A DNA stretch of 64,000 nt from an uncultured Thermodesulfobacteriota bacterium (GTDB taxonomy: Bacteria > Desulfobacterota > WTBG01 > CAIYCZ01 > CAIRTM01), in assembly GCA_964566035.1 (NCBI GenBank), contig CAZMHH010000007.1, positions 4,803 to 68,802 of the forward strand, given 5' to 3'. Under the pieces are notes generated by a model. That model saw only the letters and a list, made by a program, of their open reading frames with translations. It searched no databases and was not told the DNA's origin. The position numbers were made by a program, and so were the translations under genes. This document shows, piece by piece, positions 24,253 to 59,962 of the stretch (position 1 is the first letter of the stretch; each line of letters starts with the position of its first letter).

Positions 24253-25716
24253 ATGAATATTAGAAAAGGACTCGATGGGGGTCAATATTGCCCATTAAAT
24301 GATGAGGATATAAAAAAAATACATGAAGCCACACTCAGAGTGTTTAGTGAAGTGGGTGTTGAGATAAACCATACTGAAGCCATTGAACTTTTTAAGGGTG
24401 CCGGTGCTGAAGTTGACGGTGATTCCGGAATTGTCCGAATCCCTTCTCACCTGGTTGAAAAATTAGTAGGTATGGCTCCTTCTGAAATTGTGCTGTGCGG
24501 ACGTGATGATGATCAAAGTCTTGACTGCAGGATAGGCGGAACACGTGTCTATATGGGGACCGGCGGAACAGCGCTTCAGGTGCAGGAGTCTGGAAGCAAT
24601 TCAGCCAGGCAGTCAAAGCTTGATGACATTGTTAACATGGCACGTCTTGTTGACAAACTTGAAAATATTCATTTCTATATGTTAAATGTCTATCCAAATG
24701 ACCTTGAAAACAGAAATGTTGATGTCAACCGTTTTGGAGCTGCTCTGAATAACACACAGAAACATATAATGGGAGGAGTCTATAGTGTTGAAGGAATACG
24801 CAATGTTGTCAGAATGGCTGAAATTATAGCAGGGTCTCCTGAAAAGCTGAGGGAACGCCCATTTATTTCAATGGTGGCATGTATTATAAGCCCTTTCAAG
24901 GTTGATGAGAGTTATGGAGAGCTGGCCATAGAGGTAGCCAGGCAGGGCATCCCGCTGGTGGTTCCTGCTGAGCCGTTGTGCGGAGCTACTGCCCCGATTA
25001 CACTTGCCGGAAATCTGTTGGTGCAGAATGTTGATACTCTTACAGGGGTTATGCTCAGCCAGTTGGTCAACCCCGGCACACCTATTTTATACGGTTGTAT
25101 TTCATCAATTACAGATCTGAGAGACATGAAATATCTTGCAGGAGCTGTTGAAATGGGTCTTTTGAATGCTGCATCTTCACAGATGGCAAGATTTTACGGT
25201 ATCCCGATTTATGCCACAGCAGGCATGTCTGATTCCAAGGTAAATGATGCTCAGGTTGGTTATGAGTCTGCAATGACAAACCTTATGGTTGCTCTTGCCG
25301 GAGCAAATTTTATTCACGATGCAGCGGGTTTTTTAGAGTTCTGTAAAACTGCCTCATATGATAAGCTTGTGATAGACAATGAAATTATTGGTATGGTTAT
25401 GCGTGCTGTTGAAGGAATTAAGGTTAGTGATGAGACACTTGCCTTTGATGAGATTAAAAAGGCAGGACCGGGGGGTAATTTCATCTCCTCGCGATTAACA
25501 AGGAAACTCATGCGTTCAGAACAATATAAACCCTGTTTCAGCGACAGGGAGAACAGAGATGTTTGGATGGAAGGCGGGTCAAAGGATGCTGCAACCAGGG
25601 CAACTGAGCATGTCGGCAGGGTTTTGGGTAAGGCTCGAGAAGCTGTTTTGCCCGCAGAGATCAGAAAATCTATTTTAGCTGAAATACAGGGGATTTGTCC
25701 CGAGATAATGCAATAA
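24253..25716 (+). CDS. MttB-superfamily (trimethylamine methyltransferase family) corrinoid-dependent methyltransferase, non-pyrrolysine type (MtgB-like)
   Basis: Full-length, 487 aa, with no internal stop codon, so no in-frame UAG. MttB-family TIM-barrel motifs are spread through the protein. Confidence 0.8.
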   Translation: MNIRKGLDGGQYCPLNDEDIKKIHEATLRVFSEVGVEINHTEAIELFKGAGAEVDGDSGIVRIPSHLVEKLVGMAPSEIVLCGRDDDQSLDCRIGGTRVYMGTGGTALQVQESGSNSARQSKLDDIVNMARLVDKLENIHFYMLNVYPNDLENRNVDVNRFGAALNNTQKHIMGGVYSVEGIRNVVRMAEIIAGSPEKLRERPFISMVACIISPFKVDESYGELAIEVARQGIPLVVPAEPLCGATAPITLAGNLLVQNVDTLTGVMLSQLVNPGTPILYGCISSITDLRDMKYLAGAVEMGLLNAASSQMARFYGIPIYATAGMSDSKVNDAQVGYESAMTNLMVALAGANFIHDAAGFLEFCKTASYDKLVIDNEIIGMVMRAVEGIKVSDETLAFDEIKKAGPGGNFISSRLTRKLMRSEQYKPCFSDRENRDVWMEGGSKDAATRATEHVGRVLGKAREAVLPAEIRKSILAEIQGICPEIMQ

Positions 25717-44063: not shown

Positions 44064-44484
44064 AAAATGACCGGGAGTAAATTGACGTATCGGCGGCCTT
44101 TGACAGCTTATGTCATATTATTATACCTAAATTGAGCGATTTTAAAGTTTTGTAGGCATTCGCAACGGTTTTTAGCTCATTCACGGGCAGGCATCCATGC
44201 CTGTTCTGCCGAGGCATGTCGCACGTTTCACCATCCAGGTGAAACCTTTGTGTGACATGAATCCGCTACAAACCATTGTGAATGCCTTGTTTGACACAAC
44301 ACGTCTGCTCATAATCGCTCAGATTAGGTTATAGTTATATCCAGTTATTCTCAAAACCGTTCCTTTGAAGATATTTTTTTGCAAGTAAGTCCTAAAATCT
44401 TTTCTCTTGAAGATAACAATCCCATTTTTGCTTATGTTCTTGCTGATCCATGATGACTGACTGCTGATTCTCTATAATTTTTTC

Positions 44485-44499
44485 TTGACAACATATTTT

Positions 44500-44512
<13 letters not shown>
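44485..44512 (+). promoter_or_regulatory. consensus sigma70 promoter (TTGACA-16-TATAAT), duplicate of the rrf2 promoter, oriented toward metY
   Basis: TTGACA at 44485-44490 and TATAAT at 44507-44512, followed by an ATCTCTAT...ATAGAGAT inverted repeat. Paralogous to 49599-49650. Confidence 0.4.
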
Positions 44513-46168
<1,656 letters not shown>

Positions 46169-46330
46169 CTGCTGGCTGTTAAGCTGTTGAGCAAGGAGCA
46201 GCTATCAGGTGTCGGCAGTCGGCTGTCAGCAAAAAATAAAAGCTGATAAGCTGATAAGCCGTACAGAAAAGATTATTTACCATTAAATGCAGAAAATAAA
46301 GCTGAAGTTATTAAATAAGAGGATTCATCT

Positions 46331-49220: not shown

Positions 49221-49598
49221 AAAGGCAACTTTTGTTTTTGATGGGTTTCAGGATTAGTAACTTAGAAGTTATTTTTTGCATTTACTGGCAAAAAATATTT
49301 CAGTGTAGAGAAATAGCCTTGAAAACAGAAGTCAGAATAAAAAGTGAAAAGCTGCAAGTTACAAGTTTAAGAGTTTAAAAGTTTACCCGCTTTTGCTGAG
49401 AGCTACGATAACGACCACGAAGGGTTTGCTGATAGCTGACAACTGATACCTGACAGCTGCTTTTTGCTATGAGCTACCAGCTACGAGCTAACCCGGACAT
49501 CTTTTTGGTTCCGGCTTGTCCGGGTTAGGGGTCACTCATTAAAGGCTCTCTGTCAAGGCAATAATAGTTTCCCTGAGACAGAAGAATCTTTTTTCTGC

Positions 49599-49626
49599 TT
49601 GACAATGCTGATTTATGAGCTATAAT
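49599..49626 (+). promoter_or_regulatory. consensus sigma70 promoter (TTGACA-16-TATAAT) of the rrf2 gene with a downstream inverted-repeat operator candidate
   Basis: TTGACA at 49599-49604 and TATAAT at 49621-49626. Imperfect palindrome 'ATGTCTAT-N18-ATAGAGAT' lies between the promoter and the start codon. Confidence 0.45.
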
Positions 49627-49669
49627 GTCTATAAAGATAGTAGATTTAATAGAGATGCAGGGAGAAAAG

Positions 49670-50110
49670 ATGAAATTATCAACCAAGGGCAGATACGGGT
49701 TAAGGCTTATGATCGATATTGCCAGACATGGCGGCAGTGAGCCTGTTATCCTGGCAGATATTGCTCAAAGGGAGGAGATGTCTGTAAAATACCTGTGGCA
49801 TCTCATAAACCCCTTAAAAACCGCCGGACTTATACGTTCGGTAAGGGGAGCTCATGGCGGGTATTATATTGCAAAGCCTCTTAATGATATAACGCTTAAA
49901 GATATTGTCTGCGCTCTTGAAGGGTCGATGAGTGTAACCGAATGCGTGGATATGCCTGCAATATGTGATCGTTCCGATGGCTGTATTTCAAGAGAAATAT
50001 GGAAGGATATATCTGATAAAATATCAGGCACACTTGAATCAATCACCCTGCAGAATATTGTTGAAAAAAAGAACAATAAAAAGGGAAAACAGTTTGATTA
50101 TGTGATATAG
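49670..50110 (+). CDS. Rrf2 family transcriptional regulator with Fe-S-type Cys triad (IscR/CymR-like)
   Basis: 'MKLSTKGRYGLRLMIDIARHGG' N-terminal HTH and 'C-x6-C-x5-C' cluster-ligand spacing. GGGAGAAAAG ribosome-binding site before the ATG. Confidence 0.85.
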   Translation: MKLSTKGRYGLRLMIDIARHGGSEPVILADIAQREEMSVKYLWHLINPLKTAGLIRSVRGAHGGYYIAKPLNDITLKDIVCALEGSMSVTECVDMPAICDRSDGCISREIWKDISDKISGTLESITLQNIVEKKNNKKGKQFDYVI

Positions 50111-51201: not shown

Positions 51202-52338
51202 ATGAACGTACTTCAAACCGAATTTGCTCCGGCAGAAAGAGCTGAGATGTCTGTGATCCAGAGACAGGCTGCTGTATTTACCAACCTGGATCCATTGGTT
51301 TTTCTGGCGGATGCAGCAATTGAGTACATACTTGTTTTGAATAATTTTCGGCAGATTGTGTTTGCTAACCTGTCATTTACTGATTTTATTAAAATAGAAA
51401 ACCGGCAGGCTGTTTATGGAAAGAGACCAGGTGAAGCTGTGAACTGTATCAATGCCTGTCTATCTGAAGAGGGATGCGGCACAACCGGTTTCTGCAGGGA
51501 GTGCGGTGCGGCAAACACGATTCTGCAGGCGCTTACCGGCAAACCCGCTATTATGGAATGTCATATCCTGAGAAGACCTGATAAAAATATTGAAGCCATC
51601 GACTGCCTTGCCCATACCACCCCATTCAATTACCGGGGAGAGGATTTCGCGGTTCTCACCTGGACAAATATTAGCGATCAGAACAGAAGAAAGATTCTTG
51701 AAAGGACATTTTTTCATGACATTATGAACATTGCCGGTCCGCTTAAAGGATTTGCTGATCTGCTTATTTCGTCGGAAACGGAGAAAAAAGAAAAATATGC
51801 GGGTTTTATTAAAAACATTTCAGAGCGGCTTTTCGATGAAATTGAAGCACAGCGCAGTCTGCTTGCAGCAGAGAACAATGAACTTGCCATAAATGCGGTA
51901 CAGATCAACTCAAAGGAACTTGCTGCAAGTGTGATTTCCCTGTTTCATGACCATACACTGGCAGGCAACAAATATATTGTGACCCGCGCAGATTTTGAGG
52001 AAATTCAATTCAAATCCGACCGGGCGTTGATACATCGGGTTCTGGTTAATATGTTGAAAAATGCGCTTGAAGCAACAGTAAGTAGCGATACTGTTACCAT
52101 TGGTTGTATAAATAAGCAGGGTAAGGTGCTTTTCAGTGTTCACAATCCGGGAGTTATCCCGAAACACGTTCAAATGCAGATATTCAAACGCTCATTTTCC
52201 ACAAAAGGCAATGGAAGAGGAATCGGCACCTACAGCATGAAATTGCTTTGTGAAAATTATCTGGGGGGAACGGTTTATTTTACCTCTTGCCCTGAAACAG
52301 GAACAACGTTTACCGCTGAGTTTCCTCTTAACTTATAA
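51202..52338 (+). CDS. soluble sensor histidine kinase with Cys-rich N-terminal sensor domain; no cognate response regulator adjacent
   Basis: H-box 'FFHDIMNIAGPLKGFADLL'. HATPase_c N, G1 and G2 boxes: 'VNMLKNALEA', 'GNGRGIGT', 'GGTVYF'. No TM segment. Sensor has 'CINACLSEEGCGTTGFCRECG'. Confidence 0.7.
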   Translation: MNVLQTEFAPAERAEMSVIQRQAAVFTNLDPLVFLADAAIEYILVLNNFRQIVFANLSFTDFIKIENRQAVYGKRPGEAVNCINACLSEEGCGTTGFCRECGAANTILQALTGKPAIMECHILRRPDKNIEAIDCLAHTTPFNYRGEDFAVLTWTNISDQNRRKILERTFFHDIMNIAGPLKGFADLLISSETEKKEKYAGFIKNISERLFDEIEAQRSLLAAENNELAINAVQINSKELAASVISLFHDHTLAGNKYIVTRADFEEIQFKSDRALIHRVLVNMLKNALEATVSSDTVTIGCINKQGKVLFSVHNPGVIPKHVQMQIFKRSFSTKGNGRGIGTYSMKLLCENYLGGTVYFTSCPETGTTFTAEFPLNL

Positions 52339-52349
52339 ACTTTGAAGTC

Positions 52350-53486
52350 ATGAATGTACAGAACACGTTATTTAAACAACAAAGCATCGGAATTGTAAAA
52401 ACAGACTATGCTGATTTTGATGAACTTCTGCTTGAGAGCGGGGAGATGATTGCACCGTTCAAGATCGCTTATGAGATGTACGGCAAACTGAACCCTTCAA
52501 AATCAAATGCAGTGCTGGTCTGCCATGCACTTTCCGGGGATGCCCATGCAGCGGGTTTTCATGAATCACAGAACAAACCCGGCTGGTGGGACAGTATGAT
52601 CGGACAGGGCAGAGCCTTTGACACGGACAGATATTTTGTTATCTGCTCAAATGTACTTGGAGGCTGTTCCGGAAGCACGGGTCCGTCTTCGACTAACCCT
52701 GCAACCGGTCTTGCTTATGGCATTGATTTTCCTGTTATAACAATTGGAGATATGGTTTCAGCACAAAAAAAACTGACCGAATACCTTGGTATTGAAAAGC
52801 TTCTGGCGGTTGCCGGCGGGTCAATGGGCGGGATGCAGGCGCTTGAGTGGCTGATTAAATATCCTGACAATACCGGCGGGGCGGTTCTGATTTCAACTTC
52901 ATCAAAACATTCCCCTCAGCAGATTGCCTTTAATGAGGTGGGAAGACAGGCAATAATGGCAGACCCTTCCTGGCAAAACGGAAGCTATTATGGCAGTGAT
53001 TATCCGGGAAGAGGGCTTGCTGTGGCGAGAATGATAGGACATATTACATTTATGAGCGATGCGTCGATGATGAAAAAATTCGGCAGACAGAAGAAGCTTG
53101 AAAAAGAGCCATTTAAATTCAATCCGGACTTTGAGGTGGAGGGCTATCTGCAGTACCGGGGAAACAGCTTTGTTAAACGGTTTGATGCCAACAGCTATCT
53201 CTATATCACAAAGGCGATGGACTACTATGACGCTTCAAGAGGAAAACAGCTTTTTGAGGTCTTGATGGGCATTCAATCCCAGGCGCTTGTGATTGCTTTT
53301 AAGTCGGACTGGCTATATCCTGAATACCAGTCTCAGGAGATTATAAAAGCCTGCAAGCTTGCAGGGGTTGCTTCATCCTACTGTGTAATTGAATCAAATT
53401 ACGGACACGATGCATTCCTTCTGGAGACTGTTGAACAGTCGCATCTGATCCGCCATTTTTTGAAGAGAGTGGGGAGTAGCTGTTAA
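52350..53486 (+). CDS. metX: homoserine O-acetyltransferase
   Basis: alpha/beta-hydrolase fold with 'LVCHALSGDAHAAG' and nucleophile 'GGSMGGMQA', typical of MetX. Confidence 0.9.
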   Translation: MNVQNTLFKQQSIGIVKTDYADFDELLLESGEMIAPFKIAYEMYGKLNPSKSNAVLVCHALSGDAHAAGFHESQNKPGWWDSMIGQGRAFDTDRYFVICSNVLGGCSGSTGPSSTNPATGLAYGIDFPVITIGDMVSAQKKLTEYLGIEKLLAVAGGSMGGMQALEWLIKYPDNTGGAVLISTSSKHSPQQIAFNEVGRQAIMADPSWQNGSYYGSDYPGRGLAVARMIGHITFMSDASMMKKFGRQKKLEKEPFKFNPDFEVEGYLQYRGNSFVKRFDANSYLYITKAMDYYDASRGKQLFEVLMGIQSQALVIAFKSDWLYPEYQSQEIIKACKLAGVASSYCVIESNYGHDAFLLETVEQSHLIRHFLKRVGSSC

Positions 53487-53720
53487 GCTGATAAGCAAAG
53501 GTATAAAAGCTACGAGCTGAATTGCTTTTACTTGCTTGCCCTGTGAAATATACGAAGTATGAGCGAAGCGAATTTCACTGGGGTATCTTGCAACTTGAAG
53601 CTTGTATCTGTATATTCGTGTTCGTAGGCGTTATCGTAATCGTAATCGAAAGAGCCGATTTCAGGTTTCAGGAAAAACATAAAAGCAGGTGTTGGCTTTC
53701 AGGTTTCAGGAAAAGGGATG

Positions 53721-53846
53721 ACGATTACGAGCACGAAAAACGGGTGGCAAAACAGTTTCAAGATTCAAGCTGCAGGTGGAAAGCAAAAGGATATTCTGAC
53801 TTCTGTGTTTTGTCCGGGAGCGCCGCACCCCAGTGCGGCAAGTTAT
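53721..53846. repeat. ~125 bp intergenic repeat, copy A, with terminal GC hairpin (gccgcac-N4-gtgcggc)
   Basis: Near-identical to 56504-56631. Sits inside a 380-bp insertion-like spacer between metX and metW. Confidence 0.7.
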
Positions 53847-53868
53847 TTACTCATTTACCCTTTAACTT

Positions 53869-54456
53869 ATGCAACGAATTGATCACAAAATAATATTTGA
53901 TATCGTGGTGCCGGGTGCTTCGGTGCTGGATCTGGGATGCGGAGACGGAGAATTGCTCTACTCTCTTACAAAAGATAAAAATGTAAAAGCCCAGGGTATT
54001 GAGATAGACAGCAGGGCTGTTTTAAAGTGTTCAGAAAAAGGAATCGGTGTATATCACAGCAATATTGATGAAGGTCTTTCTGATTATACAGACAGCCGTT
54101 TTGACTATGTCATACTGAATCAGTCCATGCAGCAGGTGATAAAGCCTGAGTATGTGCTGAGCGAGGCGCTCAGGGTCGGGGTCAGGGTAATAGTGGGGTT
54201 TCCAAATTTTGCTTTTTATAGGGCAAGATTTCAGTTGGGTATTATGGGCAGAACGCCTGTCACGCCATCTCTTCCGTTTCACTGGTATGATACCCCGAAC
54301 CTTCATTTTCTGACCATTGCCGATTTTGTCTGGTACTGTAAGGAAAAGAATATTAGAATTGAAAAGGCTTTCGCAACAGGCAAAAAAAGGATAATTAAAA
54401 TTCTGCCCAATCTATTCGGGCGAAGCGCAATATTTATGATTAGAAGGAAGTTATGA
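53869..54456 (+). CDS. metW: methionine biosynthesis protein MetW
   Basis: 'VLDLGCGDGELL' SAM-MTase-like motif and overall MetW collinearity. Normal partner of metX. Confidence 0.8.
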   Translation: MQRIDHKIIFDIVVPGASVLDLGCGDGELLYSLTKDKNVKAQGIEIDSRAVLKCSEKGIGVYHSNIDEGLSDYTDSRFDYVILNQSMQQVIKPEYVLSEALRVGVRVIVGFPNFAFYRARFQLGIMGRTPVTPSLPFHWYDTPNLHFLTIADFVWYCKEKNIRIEKAFATGKKRIIKILPNLFGRSAIFMIRRKL

Positions 54457-55520
54457 CACAAAAGGTACTGGCTGCAATGAGCGGAGGGGTTGACTCCTCT
54501 GTCAGCGCACTTCTTCTAAAAGAGAAAGGGTTTAATGTCGAGGGGGTTACCATGTGCTTTGGTCTGAAAGACCAAAACCTGGATGGTAAAAAATGCTGTG
54601 ATGCCTCTTCAATTACAGATGCACAAAAGTGCTGCAAGGTTCTTGGTATAAGACATTTTGTGCTTGATTTTGCAGATGAGCTTGAGAACCATGTCATCAG
54701 AAACTTTATCTCTGAATATGAAAGGGGCAGAACCCCCAACCCTTGTGTTGAGTGCAACAGAGCAATAAAATTCGGGGCTCTTCTGAAAAAAGCCTCTTCT
54801 TTGGGTTTTGATTATCTTGCAACAGGACATTATGCTCAGCTTGAACTCTACAATAACTCTTTAACCTTAAAAAAACATAAAGATGCAAAAAAGGATCAGG
54901 TATATTTTTTATATGCGGTAGATAAAGACTGTTTCAGAAAAACTCTCTTCCCCCTTGCCGGATATACCAAGACGCAGGTCAGGCAGCTTGCAAAAGAGGC
55001 AAATCTGCCGGTTCAGAAAAAACCGGAAAGTCAGGATATCTGTTTTATAAAGGGCAGAGATTACGGGCAGTTTCTATCCTCACGCATTGGAGGCAGAATC
55101 AAACCGGGAGAGATTATTGACCTGAAAGGAAAGGTGCTTGGAAGACACAACGGTGTCTGTTTTTATACAATTGGCCAGAGGTACGGGCTTGGAATCAGTT
55201 CACCGCACCCTCTTTATGTTATACGTATTGATGACCAAAATAACAGACTTATTGTAGGCGGCAGAAAGCATTTAAAGTCCGGCGGATTAAAGGCTGACAG
55301 TATTAATATATTTGTTGACAAACTTCCTGAAAGCGTTTATGCAAAGATAAGATATGCCCACAGACCGCAGCCTTGCAGGGCTTTTGTTTCTGATGATATG
55401 TTGAATGTATGTTTTGATGAACCCCAGGAGGCGGTAACTCCGGGACAGTCTGTTGTGTTGTATGATGGTGATTATCTGCTTGGCGGTGGGGTTATAAAGG
55501 AGGTTTTGCCTTATGAGTAA
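54453..55520 (+). CDS. mnmA: tRNA 2-thiouridine(34) synthase
   Basis: PP-loop 'AAMSGGVDSSV', catalytic Cys region and C-terminal barrel typical of MnmA. Confidence 0.9.
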   Translation: MTQKVLAAMSGGVDSSVSALLLKEKGFNVEGVTMCFGLKDQNLDGKKCCDASSITDAQKCCKVLGIRHFVLDFADELENHVIRNFISEYERGRTPNPCVECNRAIKFGALLKKASSLGFDYLATGHYAQLELYNNSLTLKKHKDAKKDQVYFLYAVDKDCFRKTLFPLAGYTKTQVRQLAKEANLPVQKKPESQDICFIKGRDYGQFLSSRIGGRIKPGEIIDLKGKVLGRHNGVCFYTIGQRYGLGISSPHPLYVIRIDDQNNRLIVGGRKHLKSGGLKADSINIFVDKLPESVYAKIRYAHRPQPCRAFVSDDMLNVCFDEPQEAVTPGQSVVLYDGDYLLGGGVIKEVLPYE

Positions 55521-56442
55521 TAAAATGTATAAAGAGATTGCAGCTTTCATGAAAATGCCGCTTTTAGAGCTTGTTCAAAAGGCGGATACCGTTCGTCGTG
55601 ACAGGGGTTTTGAGAAGATGGATATCTGCACAATCTTCAACGCAAAATCGGGAAAATGCACCGAGGACTGCAAATTCTGCGCTCAGTCTTCCTACCACAA
55701 AACAGATATTTCACGCTATCCTTTGAAAAGTGTGGAAGAGATATTTAAAGCAGCTTTTGAAGCATATCAAAACGGCGCTCAGAGTTTCGGTATTGTCTGC
55801 AGCGGCAACAAACCGACGGAGAAAGAGTTCGGCGTGATTTGTGATGCAACAGAAAAAATCAGCCGAGAGATCGGAATTAAGGTCTGTGCCTCACTTGGTG
55901 CAATATCACGGGAAGAACTTAAACAGTTAAAGCAGTCAGGACTTTCAAAATATCATCACAACATTGAAACCTCCCCAAGGTTTTATCCGGAGATAGTCAC
56001 CACCCACAGCTTTGATGAAAGACTGCGCACAATCAATGCAGCTAGTAAAGCAGGGCTTGATGTGTGCTGCGGTGTTTTAATCGGAATGGGTGAGACAATG
56101 GATGACAGGATTGAGATGGCTCTCATCCTGAAAGAACTGCCTGTTGTTTCGGTTCCTGTAAACATCCTTGTCCCGATAAAGGGCACTCCGCTTGAGAATA
56201 AAGAGGCGCCTTCCTGTGATGAGATCATCAGAACAATTGCCATTTTCAGGATTCTGATTCAGGATAAAAGCATAAAGATTGCAGCAGGAAGAGAGACCGT
56301 ACTGAAGGACTTTCAGTCGCTGGGGTTTATGGCGGGAGCAACAGGAATGCTGATCGGAGGATATCTCACGGTAAAGGGAAGGCAAATTGAAGAAGACAGA
56401 AGGCTGATAAAGGAGATAGAGAGTGTATGGGATAGCTCGTAG
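55513..56442 (+). CDS. bioB: biotin synthase-like radical SAM enzyme
   Basis: 'KSGKCTEDCKFCAQS' CxxxCxxC radical-SAM motif in a BioB-like context. No other bio genes are nearby. Confidence 0.65.
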   Translation: MSNKMYKEIAAFMKMPLLELVQKADTVRRDRGFEKMDICTIFNAKSGKCTEDCKFCAQSSYHKTDISRYPLKSVEEIFKAAFEAYQNGAQSFGIVCSGNKPTEKEFGVICDATEKISREIGIKVCASLGAISREELKQLKQSGLSKYHHNIETSPRFYPEIVTTHSFDERLRTINAASKAGLDVCCGVLIGMGETMDDRIEMALILKELPVVSVPVNILVPIKGTPLENKEAPSCDEIIRTIAIFRILIQDKSIKIAAGRETVLKDFQSLGFMAGATGMLIGGYLTVKGRQIEEDRRLIKEIESVWDSS

Positions 56443-56503
56443 TAAAACATAAAAGCCGTTGAGCTGTTAAGCTGATAAGCAAAAGCGATAATGACAACGA
56501 TAG

Positions 56504-56631
56504 CGATTACGAGCACGACCACGGGTGGCAAAAACAGTTTCAAGATTCAAGCTGCAAGTGGAAAGCAAAAGGATATTCTGACTTCTGTTTTTCTGTCAGG
56601 GAGCGCCGCACCCACAGTGCGGCAAGTTATT
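56504..56631. repeat. ~125 bp intergenic repeat, copy B
   Basis: 'cgattacgagcacga..acgggtggcaaaaacagtttcaagattcaagctgcaagtggaaagcaaaaggatattctgacttctg...gagcgccgcaccc.cagtgcggcaagttatt' matches copy A with only a few substitutions and short indels. Confidence 0.7.
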
Positions 56632-56671
56632 AACACATATACACTCATACACATATACACATTTTGAAAAC

Positions 56672-57490
56672 ATGGGATCAATTGAAAAGAAATACAGTAA
56701 ATTAAAAAGCATACTGTCTGAAATGGAAAGTGTGCTTGTGGCATATTCCGGCGGAACGGACAGCACCTTTTTACTGAAAACAGCCCAGGATGTTCTTGGT
56801 GACAGGGTGATTGCTGCTATAGCAGAATCTCCGACTTTTCCTGCTTCTGAAAAAGACCGTGCCCTTTCAGAAGCAAAAAAGATGAATGTAGAGGTAATTG
56901 TTTTTAAAAGCACCGAGATAAGGAACAAACGGTACCTCCAAAACAAGCCCGACAGATGTTACTGGTGCAAAAAAGAGCTCTTTACAGGGTTTAAAAAGGA
57001 AGCTCATAAAAAAGGCATATCCTGTATTGTTGAAGGCAGCAACTTTGACGACCGGAAAGATTACAGACCTGGCTTTAAAGCTGTTACTGAGCTTGGTATA
57101 AAAAGCCCTCTTTATGAAGCAAAACTTATAAAGGCTGATATCCGTGAGTTGTCGAGAAAAGCAGGGCTTGATACATGGAACCGTCCGGCATCTGCCTGTC
57201 TTGCATCACGCATACCTTACGGTAAGCCGATTAATGAAAAAACACTTAAACAGATTGACCGTGCTGAACAGTATCTGAAAAAACTTGGGATAAATCAGGT
57301 CAGGGTGCGTCATCATGGCGATACAGCAAGGATTGAGACCTTAAATGAGTTTTTCACATTGCTGTTCAGAGATGATGTAAGAAAAAAAACAATCAGAGCT
57401 TTCAAAAGAATTGGCTATTTATACATCACCGTTGATCTGGAAGGTTATTCTATGGGCAGTCTTAATAAAGTATTGTCAGTTAAGGTGTGA
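56672..57490 (+). CDS. PP-loop ATP pyrophosphatase of the LarE/TIGR00268 family (putative sacrificial sulfur transferase)
   Basis: PP-loop 'VAYSGGTDSTFLL' and 'RPASACLASRIPYG', which matches the LarE reactive-Cys motif. Confidence 0.65.
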   Translation: MGSIEKKYSKLKSILSEMESVLVAYSGGTDSTFLLKTAQDVLGDRVIAAIAESPTFPASEKDRALSEAKKMNVEVIVFKSTEIRNKRYLQNKPDRCYWCKKELFTGFKKEAHKKGISCIVEGSNFDDRKDYRPGFKAVTELGIKSPLYEAKLIKADIRELSRKAGLDTWNRPASACLASRIPYGKPINEKTLKQIDRAEQYLKKLGINQVRVRHHGDTARIETLNEFFTLLFRDDVRKKTIRAFKRIGYLYITVDLEGYSMGSLNKVLSVKV

Positions 57491-57495
57491 ACTGT

Positions 57496-58713
57496 ATGAG
57501 ACCAATTTATCTTGACTATGCAGCCACAACACCAGTACTGCCGGAGGTGCTGGAAGTTGCAAACAGATACTGTCTTGAACAATTCGGTAACCCCTCCTCC
57601 CTGCATGAATTTGGTTTTGAAGCAAAAAAGGCGATAGAACATACACGAAGCACAGTTGCGCGGTTTATTGGAGCATCAGCTTCTGAATCAATAATTTTTA
57701 CCTCATCTGCTACAGAGTCAAACAACCTTGCCATACAGGGACTTGTCTTAAACATTGCAGAAAAACCCGTTCATATCATCACCTCTGAAACAGAGCATAG
57801 TTCAGTCTATAATGTATGCACATTTTTACAGGGTTTGGGGCATGATGTTACTTTTCTGCCGGTTGATTCATACGGCAGGGTAAGTCCAAAAGCACTTAAT
57901 AAAAACATAAAGCCTGACACAGCGCTAATCTCCATTCATTATGCAAACAGCGAGACAGGTGTAATCCAGGACATTGAAACTATCGGTGAAATTGCTCTCA
58001 AAAGCAGTATGGTTTTTCATACAGATGCGGTTCAGCCAATCGGCAGGATACAAATAGATGTTTTAAAGAGCAGCATCTCTATGCTGTCATGCTCTGCGCA
58101 CAAACTCTACAGTATCAAAGGAGCAGGGTTTCTGCTTGCTGATATGGCTGATATCAGACTCAGACTTGTTCAAAGAAATATCAGGCTTGAAGCAGATGAT
58201 TCTCTGTTAAAACCCCTGATGTATGGCGGAAGTCAGGAAGAAGGTCTGAGACCCTCAACCGAAAATGTTCCGGCAATTACAGCAATGAGTAAAGCCATTG
58301 AGATTGCAGCGGCAGATATGACGGCTGAAAGCCAGAGACAGAAAGAGCTGCGGGAGTATTTTATCGGTTCTGTCTTAGAGAGGATCCCGGGAACAGACCT
58401 TAACGGTTCAAGGCAGAAGCGTCTTCCAAACAACTGTAATTTATGTTTCAGGGGGGTGAATGCTTATGAGCTGATGCTTCTGCTTGACAGAAGGGGGATT
58501 GCCTGCTCAATCGGTTCAGCCTGCACATCCCATTCAGAGAAACCGTCAAGAGTGTTAACAGCAACGGTACTGACCAGTGAGGAAGCAGCAGGTTCTCTCA
58601 GGTTTATACTTGGAAGGTACACTACACTACAAGATCTGGACTATGCAGTAGAGGAAATTAGAAGATGTGTTGGTAAGCTGAACAAGGTTAGCAGCGTAGC
58701 TCGTAGCTGGTAG
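57496..58713 (+). CDS. cysteine desulfurase (NifS/IscS family)
   Basis: 'IYLDYAATTP' N-terminus, PLP-lysine region 'SCSAHKLYSIKG', catalytic Cys near the C-terminus. Confidence 0.85.
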   Translation: MRPIYLDYAATTPVLPEVLEVANRYCLEQFGNPSSLHEFGFEAKKAIEHTRSTVARFIGASASESIIFTSSATESNNLAIQGLVLNIAEKPVHIITSETEHSSVYNVCTFLQGLGHDVTFLPVDSYGRVSPKALNKNIKPDTALISIHYANSETGVIQDIETIGEIALKSSMVFHTDAVQPIGRIQIDVLKSSISMLSCSAHKLYSIKGAGFLLADMADIRLRLVQRNIRLEADDSLLKPLMYGGSQEEGLRPSTENVPAITAMSKAIEIAAADMTAESQRQKELREYFIGSVLERIPGTDLNGSRQKRLPNNCNLCFRGVNAYELMLLLDRRGIACSIGSACTSHSEKPSRVLTATVLTSEEAAGSLRFILGRYTTLQDLDYAVEEIRRCVGKLNKVSSVARSW

Positions 58714-58859
58714 CAATAAGCAGCTATCAGGTATCAGGTATCGGCTGTCAGCAAAGAGCAGGTATCGGGTATTAGGTGTCAGTTATCAGCAAAACCTTTT
58801 CGTGGTCGTAATCGTAATCGCTTTTGCTTTATAGCACATTGAAAAAAGGATGGAGTATT

Positions 58860-59714: not shown

Positions 59715-59962
59715 TATGATAATATTAATAATACTGATCTTAATTTCATTGACTTGAAAGGAAAAAATGTCCCCTGAATTTTGTTTATACAAAACTTGCA
59801 TTAGAAGATTTAAAGCAGGGACAGATACTAAAGGTAGCCCTTGATTACCCTCCGGCATTTACAAATGTTCCCAGATCGGTTAAACTTCAGGAACTTGGAG
59901 AGGTGCTGGATGAATCTGAGTCTGAGACCGGTGAAAAAATTATCTGGATAAAGAAAATATAA
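59715..59962 (+). pseudogene. TusA-family sulfurtransferase gene interrupted by a +1/-1 frameshift in an A6 homopolymer (59762-59767)
   Basis: Frame 0 reads 'MINI NNTDLNFIDLKGKNVP*'. The next frame continues '(KK)CPLNFVYTKLALEDLKQGQILKVALDYPPAFTNVPRSVKLQELGEVLDESESETGEKIIWIKKI*'. Inserting one A gives an intact 82-aa TusA with the 'DLKGKKCPLNF' active-site motif. Confidence 0.6.

Follow-up and report, generated by a model that had tools for sequence, protein, structure and literature searches.

A duplicated intergenic segment in a sulfur-metabolism operon of an uncultured Thermodesulfobacteriota bacterium as a probable part of a REP/BIME-type mosaic repeat

The 64,000-nucleotide stretch analyzed here (hereinafter the window) comes from an uncultured Thermodesulfobacteriota bacterium (GenBank assembly GCA_964566035.1, contig CAZMHH010000007.1, positions 4,803 to 68,802), and all coordinates below count from its first base. 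It carries a cluster of genes coding for a MetX-type homoserine O-acetyltransferase (52350-53486), MetW (53869-54456), MnmA (54453-55520), BioB (55513-56442), LarE (56672-57490), NifS/IscS (57487-58713), and ThiF (from ~58824). The spacer between metX and metW (spacer A, 53487-53868) and that between bioB and larE (spacer B, 56443-56671) each contain a copy of a near-identical repeat of ~125 bp ending in a GC-rich hairpin, the gene assignments confirming the placement that a first-pass annotation had given to the two copies. We are moderately confident that this sequence forms part of a non-coding intergenic mosaic, of the same type as the repetitive extragenic palindromic (REP) sequences and bacterial interspersed mosaic elements (BIMEs), that was inserted into a compact operon and copied locally.

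The two copies, delimited by blastn and global alignment, occupy 53722-53861 (copy A) and 56504-56645 (copy B), both on the plus strand. The blastn alignment of 53722-53847 to 56504-56631 has 129 columns, of which 93.0% are identical (E = 1.9e-39), and the global alignment comprises 120 matches, five substitutions (of the A/C, G/A, G/T, and C/A types), and four single-base gap columns. The similarity extends for a further 14 nt, to 53861/56645 (143 columns, 90.9%), and picks up again upstream at AAAACATAAAAGC (53674-53686 = 56444-56456). A 22-mer taken from the core of the unit occurs in the 64 kb at the two copies only, where shuffled sequences are expected to yield none. Misassembly can be ruled out, as the copies differ at nine positions, their flanks are unique, and an independent Logan assembly reproduces both: the Logan contigs of SRR15425353 are base-identical to the window (contig L061 confirming 56443-56587), and three of them end or begin within the repeat (at 53555, 53777, and 56587) because repeats break a de Bruijn graph. 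Since the four single-base indels between the copies shift all reading frames, the repeat is non-coding, and coding potential was rejected on this ground. The 123-amino-acid open reading frame (ORF) that spans spacer A (53522-53893) and has been deposited as a protein is spurious; among 5.8 billion proteins it found no homologue but itself, and the search caught no further called copy. This ORF calls for caution in annotation, and the spacers can be expected to fragment any assembly of the lineage.

Both copies close with the hairpin, GCCGCAC-CCCA-GTGCGGC in copy A (53822-53839, plus strand; predicted -13.7 kcal/mol) and GCCGCAC-CCACA-GTGCGGC in copy B (56605-56623, plus strand; predicted -13.6 kcal/mol). 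These are the only two such hairpins in the 64 kb, both intergenic and both singlets, with a 7-bp stem, a loop of 4 nt (A) or 5 nt (B), and conserved flanks (GGGAGC...AAGTT), each standing directly before AAGTTATT. REP palindromes are short (~20-40 nt), GC-rich, imperfect, and extragenic, and both hairpins conform to this description. The copies are also preceded by a shared 21-nt octamer-array motif, GCTGTTAAGCTGATAAGCAAA, which is found exactly at 53479-53499 and 56463-56483 and with three mismatches at 46175-46195; the first of these (plus strand) overlaps the final metX codons and provides the metX stop codon TAA (53484-53486). The near-identical repeat pair, its terminal hairpin, and the short motif near the upstream stop codon, all of which the first-pass annotation had pointed out, stand as described, as do the tandem motifs that it had seen inside spacer A (TTTCAGGTTTCAGGAAAA twice and (CGTAAT)3.3; see below).

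Spacer A consists of a decayed inverted copy of the unit, a loop, and the direct copy. The reverse complement of its 5′ half (53487-53670) aligns with the repeat unit at local scores of 49-62, as against 22-24 (standard deviation ~4) for shuffles. The inverted copy (A′, ~53497-53649, minus strand) makes up the left arm when the spacer is folded as one extended, imperfect hairpin, and the hexamer array (CGTAAT)3.3 detected by Tandem Repeats Finder (TRF) at 53629-53648 (plus strand) is complementary to 53717-53739. The loop (53659-53716, plus strand) holds two instances of TTTCAGGTTTCAGGAAAA (53659-53676 and 53697-53714) around AAAACATAAAAGC. When the whole spacer is folded (396 nt), a single long imperfect hairpin results (-120 kcal/mol, z = -3.17), with none of 100 shuffles folding as well. 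The AAAACATAAAAGC segment of this loop recurs at the start of spacer B (56443-56503, plus strand), where it is followed by the octamer motif at 56463-56483 and by the hexamers CGATAA/TGACAA/CGATAG from 56484. Spacer B thus has the loop-derived AAAACATAAAAGC and a direct copy without an inverted partner, and the near-identical copies therefore stand in different structural contexts.

Read in register, the unit is built of short degenerate tandem arrays. Copy B runs with a period of 6 (CGATAA, TGACAA, CGATAG, CGATTA, CGAGCA, CGACCA), then with a period of 7 (TTTCAAG, ATTCAAG, CTGCAAG, TGGAAAG, CAAAAGG), and again with a period of 7 (TTCTGAC, TTCTGTT, TTTCTGT) up to the hairpin; copy A has the order CGATTA/CGAGCA/CGAAAA hexamers, five nTnCAAG heptamers, three TTCTGnn heptamers, the GC hairpin, and a conserved tail of 22 nt. 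The consensus is one of hexamers CGAnnA followed by heptamers nnnCAAG and TTCTGnn, with octamers ending in AGC (nnnnnAGC) on the upstream side. TRF further reports the period-8 array (ACACATAT)3.8 at 56633-56662 (plus strand), after copy B and ahead of the start codon of larE; other TRF rows in the window are at 53478, 53629, 56462, and 58695-58820, among others. Tandem-repeat coverage reaches 0.36 at 46169-46330, 0.27 at 53487-53868, 0.39 at 56443-56671, 0.41 at 58714-58823, and 0.24 at 49221-49624, as compared to 0.20 in the spacer 1744-2202, which bears a miniature inverted-repeat transposable element (MITE), at most 0.18 in other intergenic regions, and 0.04 in coding sequence; the array-rich spacers of the cluster have a coding-like G+C of 0.39-0.45. 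Individual modules recur among these spacers in either orientation: ATTCTGACTTCTGTTTTC is found inverted, with an 18/18 match, in the spacer that precedes the Rrf2 promoter (49322-49339, minus strand), and a hexamer array with the 5′ end of the unit lies inverted in the nifS-thiF spacer (58794-58825, minus strand), where it is recovered both by blastn (58797-58825, 29 nt, 89.7%) and by nhmmer. The 93%-identical duplicated segment is one particular string of such array modules.

To place the spacers in the history of the operon, we used as a comparison set the five loci of the nearest MetX relatives, the closest MetX homologues among the 5.8 billion proteins being only 69% identical. These loci share the order Rrf2 - DUF2292 - O-acetylhomoserine sulfhydrylase - CysK - MetX - MetW, which in three of them (L005-L007) continues with BioB-like - NifS - ThiF - TusA. 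A small unlisted ORF of the window at 59730-59960 codes for a TusA-like protein (…CPLNFVYTKLALEDLKQGQILKVALD…) 3′ of thiF, in agreement with the thiF-tusA order of the relatives. All five loci have a 29-nt overlap of metX with metW and lack long spacers; bioB, nifS, and thiF are adjacent where they occur, and blast finds nothing similar to the element in any of the five. The description of metX-metW as a normally contiguous pair is thereby upheld, as is the claim that the repeat interrupts it, here as an insertion at an ancestrally contiguous junction. Homology of the window MetX stops at ...HFLKRV, after which the protein ends with GSSC and a stop codon, both encoded by the octamer-array motif; MetX of the relatives has 12 extra C-terminal residues that overlap the metW start, and the window MetW starts ~10 residues later than theirs. 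These trimmed tails, taken with the 29-nt overlap of the relatives, show that the 382-nt spacer replaced the metX|metW junction and that translational coupling was lost. Given that the distant relatives do without them, the spacers are lineage-specific insertions into an ancestrally compact operon in which both gene ends were trimmed. Compared with the relatives, the cluster has gained three genes: one for a histidine-kinase-like protein (51202-52338; soluble, HATPase_c only) that separates cysK from metX, mnmA, which follows metW and precedes bioB, and larE, placed after bioB and before nifS. A composite transposon or foreign cassette between the direct repeats was ruled out, as metW and bioB are native genes that the relatives have in synteny, and the intervening segment is anomalous in neither G+C nor third-position G+C. 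The content of the window at large is Gram-negative (AcrB/OEP efflux, xseA-ispA-dxs); its Dxs is 83% identical to that of one Logan contig (L100, 4.6 kb, without the operon), the nearest named proteins being from metagenome-assembled genomes (MAGs) of Desulfobacterota/Deltaproteobacteria at 63-70%.

The positions of the two copies upstream of gene blocks raise the alternative of an internal promoter or operator, duplicated before two sub-operons, that restores transcription and binds a common sulfur-responsive regulator. The cluster does have duplicated modules of this kind elsewhere (TTGACA-16-TATAAT with a palindrome, at 44478-44573 and 49592-49687). Yet no sigma-70-like hexamer pair lies at equivalent plus-strand positions in the two copies, which share only a weak minus-strand pair; a sigma-54-like TGGCA...TTTC was rejected, as it has no GC at -12 and its spacing is not the same in the two copies (1 nt difference); and the element contains no Rrf2-type palindrome. 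We accordingly regard this explanation as very unlikely, and the shared internal promoter that had been suggested for the repeat finds no backing. Much the same applies to a shared terminator: a test for the hairpin with at least five T in eight is passed by copy A (AAGTTATTTA) and failed by copy B (AAGTTATTAACA), so that no consistent terminator emerges. Two further classes of repeat were considered and discarded. Integron attC sites are imperfect palindromes over the full unit, with the core sites RYYYAAC...GTTRRRY (R″/R′); the repeat has no overall dyad symmetry, its GTTATT does not fit GTTRRRY, and its neighbours are housekeeping genes in synteny. The template and variable repeats of a diversity-generating retroelement were ruled out, as the changes are not confined to adenines, both copies are non-coding, and the cluster showed no reverse-transcriptase domain.

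We then turned to the occurrence of the modules in other genomes. The hairpin with its 3′ flank matched 35 loci in a metagenome scan, most of which were discarded as coding-sequence coincidences in high-GC contigs (e.g., ...PHTGCGKF...); L092 was likewise set aside as a coding repeat rather than an element. On contig L071 (58% G+C), three copies of CCCCGGGAGCGCCGCACCCC[A/G]GTGCGGCAAGTT lie within 700 nt, the first of them identical to window 53814-53844 at 31/31 positions. Contigs L080 and L095 (~40% G+C) have GAAGCGCCGCAC-CTGCC-GTGCGGCAAGTTTT within tandem units. These tandem units (L080 1-300, L095 1363-1419) are ~75 nt long and bring together ATTTGATTCAAATCAAATC, arrays of GGAAAATCT, and a hairpin, AACTTGCCGCAC-GGCAG-GTGCGGCGCTTC, in which a variant form of the window's module can be recognised. 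The 26-nt CCGGGAGCGCCGCACCCCAGTGCGGC, identical to window 53814-53839 (26/26), was recovered at 16 places on the plasmids pTs417 and pTs485 (0.9 Mb) of Ca. Thiodictyon syntrophicum Cad16T, which are the only ones to match among 72,556 plasmids scanned. There it forms inverted doublets (GGGAGCGCCGCACCCCAGTGCGGCGCGGCC, ~40 nt, and the complement) with a 31-bp perfect stem (-94.8 kcal/mol, z = -9.7); on the Thiodictyon and L071 loci Rfam returned only sub-threshold look-alikes of microRNA precursors, because of the long perfect hairpins. The identical hairpin core is thus seen at G+C contents of 41%, 58%, and, at the Thiodictyon loci, visibly much higher, and homology of this module between the window and the other genomes is beyond chance.

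The same Thiodictyon plasmids have a second element at no fewer than 22 places, in which a conserved ~55-nt core is flanked by (TCGTTG/TCGTAA)n and (CAACGA/TTACGA)n and which lies between co-oriented genes (e.g., pqqB|pqqC and phoX|ppk2). Its loci, with the core GGAGAAGCGATGCAATTTGGGGTGCGAGAGAATCC..., include L097 5290-5420 and 2905-3000, and L099 3380-3495, 19145-19254, 38220-38373, and 39744-39885; the plasmid records give no annotation for it, even within the pqq operon. A profile of this hexamer-array element, run against the window with nhmmer, hits cluster spacers only: 53617-53658 (E = 2.7e-5; the hit that takes in the TRF array at 53629-53648), 56486-56523, 58794-58821, and 49403-49420. 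As these matches rest chiefly on the arrays and a few adjacent bases, homology of the array modules between the window and Thiodictyon is suggestive only. The octamer array AAGCTGATAAGCTGATAAGC was found at 53 loci in GTDB representative genomes, ~20 of them Desulfobacterota MAGs. In these genomes (L008-L060), arrays of (AGCTGATA)n and its variants are intergenic and often paired with a reverse-complement array into long hairpins (e.g., L047 6450-6610, L040 3350-3500, and L043 3320-3420); a literature search turned up no description of intergenic AGCTGATA arrays.

Drawing these strands together, we favour a mosaic-repeat origin of the unit, in which short, degenerate tandem arrays, strung together in a set order and ending in the 7-bp GC-rich hairpin, would have entered an ancestrally compact Rrf2-...-metX-metW-bioB-nifS-thiF operon and then have been copied locally. 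Spacer A would combine an inverted decayed copy with a direct one, giving an imperfect hairpin of ~250 nt, and spacer B would have a single direct copy that stems from a recent duplication or has been kept alike by gene conversion. Insertion at metX/metW would have replaced the overlapping gene ends, with an array motif coming to serve as the metX stop and metW starting ~10 codons later without a Shine-Dalgarno motif. That the hairpin belongs to a multi-copy family in unrelated bacteria points to selfish spread rather than to a sulfur-gene-specific function. The mode of spread may have been local duplication and gene conversion or transposition, possibly by a transposase that recognises the hairpin. 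Of the options that had been suggested, REP-like fits best, by virtue of the multi-copy palindrome family, and MITE-like finds no support, in that the inverted termini and target-site duplication of a classical MITE were not found.

Two sets of observations weigh against this favoured origin. The first concerns mobility. A repeat search found neither terminal inverted repeats nor a target-site duplication at 53722/53861 and 56504/56645; no transposase domain was seen in the window ORFs scanned (those outside 25-44 kb); the ~100 nt between the hexamer array and the hairpin have no match in any collection searched, and phage and viral collections have no match to the element; the exact 27-nt and 22-nt core patterns have no hits in the GTDB representatives or the JGI metagenomes, the source genome and any close relative lying outside both; and the two full copies and one decayed copy in the 64 kb all fall within one gene cluster, so that local duplication fits as well as does a dispersed mobile family. 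One alternative is that the repeat is a true dispersed MITE or REPIN with many copies in the genome, two of which transposed independently into this operon by chance. Such an element would be in keeping with the multiple copies of the hairpin family in other genomes, the Logan unitigs that break at the repeat, and the high identity between copies, and the genome does contain MITEs, the same repeat search having recovered the 18-nt terminal inverted repeats of an unrelated one at 1955-2196. We nevertheless consider it improbable, given the plain ends of the unit, the absence of a copy from the remaining ~60 kb, the three copies inside 3.2 kb, which suggest local duplication, and the failure of the spacer-ORF search among 5.8 billion proteins to find another called copy.

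The second set concerns function. The direct copies have the same orientation and precede metW by 29 nt and larE by 48 nt; both genes lack the Shine-Dalgarno-like motif that most others in the window have before their start; and the conservation between the copies continues for 22 nt beyond the hairpin toward the start codons. This combination would also fit a function at the level of translation or RNA. The corresponding alternative is a cis-regulatory RNA leader common to metW-mnmA-bioB and larE-nifS, either a new riboswitch or a periodic platform for an RNA-binding protein, that governs the translation of these Shine-Dalgarno-less genes; in one variant, a protein would read the NAG/AAG triplets spaced at 7 nt in the manner of HutP/TRAP, or GGA motifs in the manner of CsrA. 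Beyond the coding-strand position of both copies just 5′ of such start codons and the conserved stretch that follows the hairpin, the heptamer register TTTCAAG/ATTCAAG/CTGCAAG/TGGAAAG/CAAAAGG is present in the sequence itself, and heptamers 5′ of Shine-Dalgarno-less genes in Beggiatoaceae have been proposed as sites of a translational regulator (PMC4679880). Against it, Rfam 15 gives no hit on the element in 53400-56700, be it at the gathering threshold or at E<=10, and the units, the 7-bp hairpin aside, fold no better than shuffled sequences (z = +1.11 for A and -0.47 for B), results which also leave the idea of a small or known RNA unsupported. Two near-identical copies make covariation impossible, the same operon in the relatives lacks the element, copy A is half of a long hairpin while copy B is not, and the component modules turn up in other spacers in one orientation or the other. 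A leader of this kind, the main rival of the mosaic repeat, strikes us as unlikely. The proposal of a regulatory site shared by two sulfur-metabolism operons is weakened in the same way by the blocks in other spacers, by the relatives' operon, and by the presence of the hairpin in unrelated contexts.

If the unit is a mosaic repeat as we favour, its hairpins, being co-transcribed within the operon, probably act as punctuation at the mRNA level. The GC hairpin could serve as a barrier to 3′ exonucleases or as a weak terminator, and a double-strand RNase could attack the long hairpin of spacer A, which together would uncouple the expression of metX, metW-mnmA-bioB, and larE-nifS; these roles are drawn by analogy from REP, Correia, and enterobacterial repetitive intergenic consensus (ERIC) elements. 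A bolder conjecture, to which we give little credence, is that GGGAGC-GCCGCAC-N4-5-GTGCGGC and the 6-8-nt arrays make up one horizontally spreading system of co-habiting anaerobes of sulfidic waters, seeded between co-transcribed genes by a transposase that recognises the hairpin or by an array-binding RNA/DNA protein and giving, as a programmable layer, both operon punctuation and Shine-Dalgarno-independent control of translation. Were this so, its hosts would be purple sulfur bacteria, Desulfobacterota, and the present lineage, and the two copies would co-regulate metW-mnmA-bioB and larE-nifS.

Intergenic palindromic and mosaic repeats are well known as a kind; the present family is without an Rfam entry or an annotation in the records examined. 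The composite of arrays and hairpin and the identity of the hairpin core at differing G+C are mildly surprising. On the favoured account, the locus would illustrate the disruption of a tight operon junction by repeat DNA that is selfish or neutral, with loss of the tails, a stop codon supplied by the repeat, and a downstream gene without a ribosome-binding site, while the genes stay intact. In this undescribed palindrome family, the identity of a 26-31-nt core across phyla and G+C contents is unusual for REP sequences and could offer a handle on horizontal spread.

Several other repeats were observed in the window. The MITE-like element at 1955-2196 (~240 bp) has 18-nt terminal inverted repeats, ATGGACCGGTAAAAAGTC and GACTTTTTACCGGTTCAT, that are 94% complementary, and octamer arrays running both ways fill part of its interior; its 5′ end recurs at 44574-44610 (37 nt, 32/37 identical), where it opens a ~195-nt insertion in an Rrf2-gene remnant. 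The duplicated promoter/operator at 44478-44573 and 49592-49687 (also 44770-44831 and 49685-49746) combines TTGACA-16-TATAAT with the palindrome CTCTAT-N16-ATAGAG and the first Rrf2 codons; the pair heads two paralogous sulfur-amino-acid gene blocks, and the upstream Rrf2 copy is a disrupted remnant. Upstream of the Rrf2 promoter lies an inverted repeat TAACCCGGACA...TGTCCGGGTTA (49489-49528), at which Logan contig L002 begins and which probably represents another lineage-specific repeat family. Of this inverted repeat, 25 nt (TAACCCGGACAAGCCGGAACCAAAA, on the window's minus strand) recur at 4614-4638 of L100, the very end of the contig with the closest Dxs (83% identical). Elsewhere, Rfam reports PYLIS_3, the pyrrolysine insertion sequence of mttB, at 25225-25324 (62.9 bits) within an ORF of the MttB family (24253-25716); this ORF has no internal stop codon, and it may thus be a non-pyrrolysine homologue that matches PYLIS_3 via coding conservation.

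A comparison with known systems brings out both the affinities and the peculiarities of the repeat. REP sequences and REPINs are mobilised by RAYT transposases (Bertels and Rainey, 2011, PMC3116915; PMC3337134). The window has the short GC-rich extragenic palindrome with conserved flanks of such sequences, the identical hairpin in Thiodictyon takes the REPIN layout of inverted doublets with a ~40-nt spacer, and the singlets of the window resemble decayed REPINs. It departs from them in having only two hairpins in 64 kb and no RAYT in the window ORFs scanned, and in that its hairpin is embedded in a ~180-nt unit of tandem arrays. In REP families, copies run to tens or hundreds per genome, and the REPs flank the gene of the cognate RAYT, a Y1 transposase; a GTAG-type 5′ tetranucleotide, another feature of REP sequences, is missing from the window hairpin. 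The RAREFAN preprint describes REPIN-RAYT systems as mostly vertically inherited, whereas the same hairpin spans genomes of 41%, 58%, and much higher G+C.

The intergenic arrays of 6-8-nt units set head to tail recall the cyanobacterial short tandemly repeated repetitive (STRR) sequences and the TAACTGA heptamer repeats of Beggiatoaceae (MacGregor, 2015, PMC4679880). They share with these an intergenic position, often just 5′ of Shine-Dalgarno-less starts, and a patchy distribution across phyla; the unit sequences are different (AGCTGATA, TCGTAA, and TTCAAGn), and the arrays here are short, degenerate, joined to a REP-like hairpin, and often arranged as inverted pairs. The Correia elements or NEMIS of Neisseria and the ERIC elements of enterobacteria are co-transcribed MITEs cut by RNase III, with terminal inverted repeats and target duplications (TA in the case of Correia). 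The window unit resembles them in its location within an operon, and the inverted pair of spacer A would be transcribed as a long hairpin that could affect the stability of the flanking mRNA; unlike them, it has no terminal inverted repeats or target duplication that we could find. Finally, the BIMEs of E. coli and the BOX elements of Streptococcus pneumoniae are modular intergenic mosaics with a variable number of modules that lie between co-transcribed genes and can stabilise upstream mRNA. There is no kinship of sequence between these and the window modules, which are degenerate 6-8-nt arrays rather than fixed boxes, but the plan is alike: a palindromic unit in mosaic with other short conserved motifs, with variable internal modules, between co-transcribed genes.

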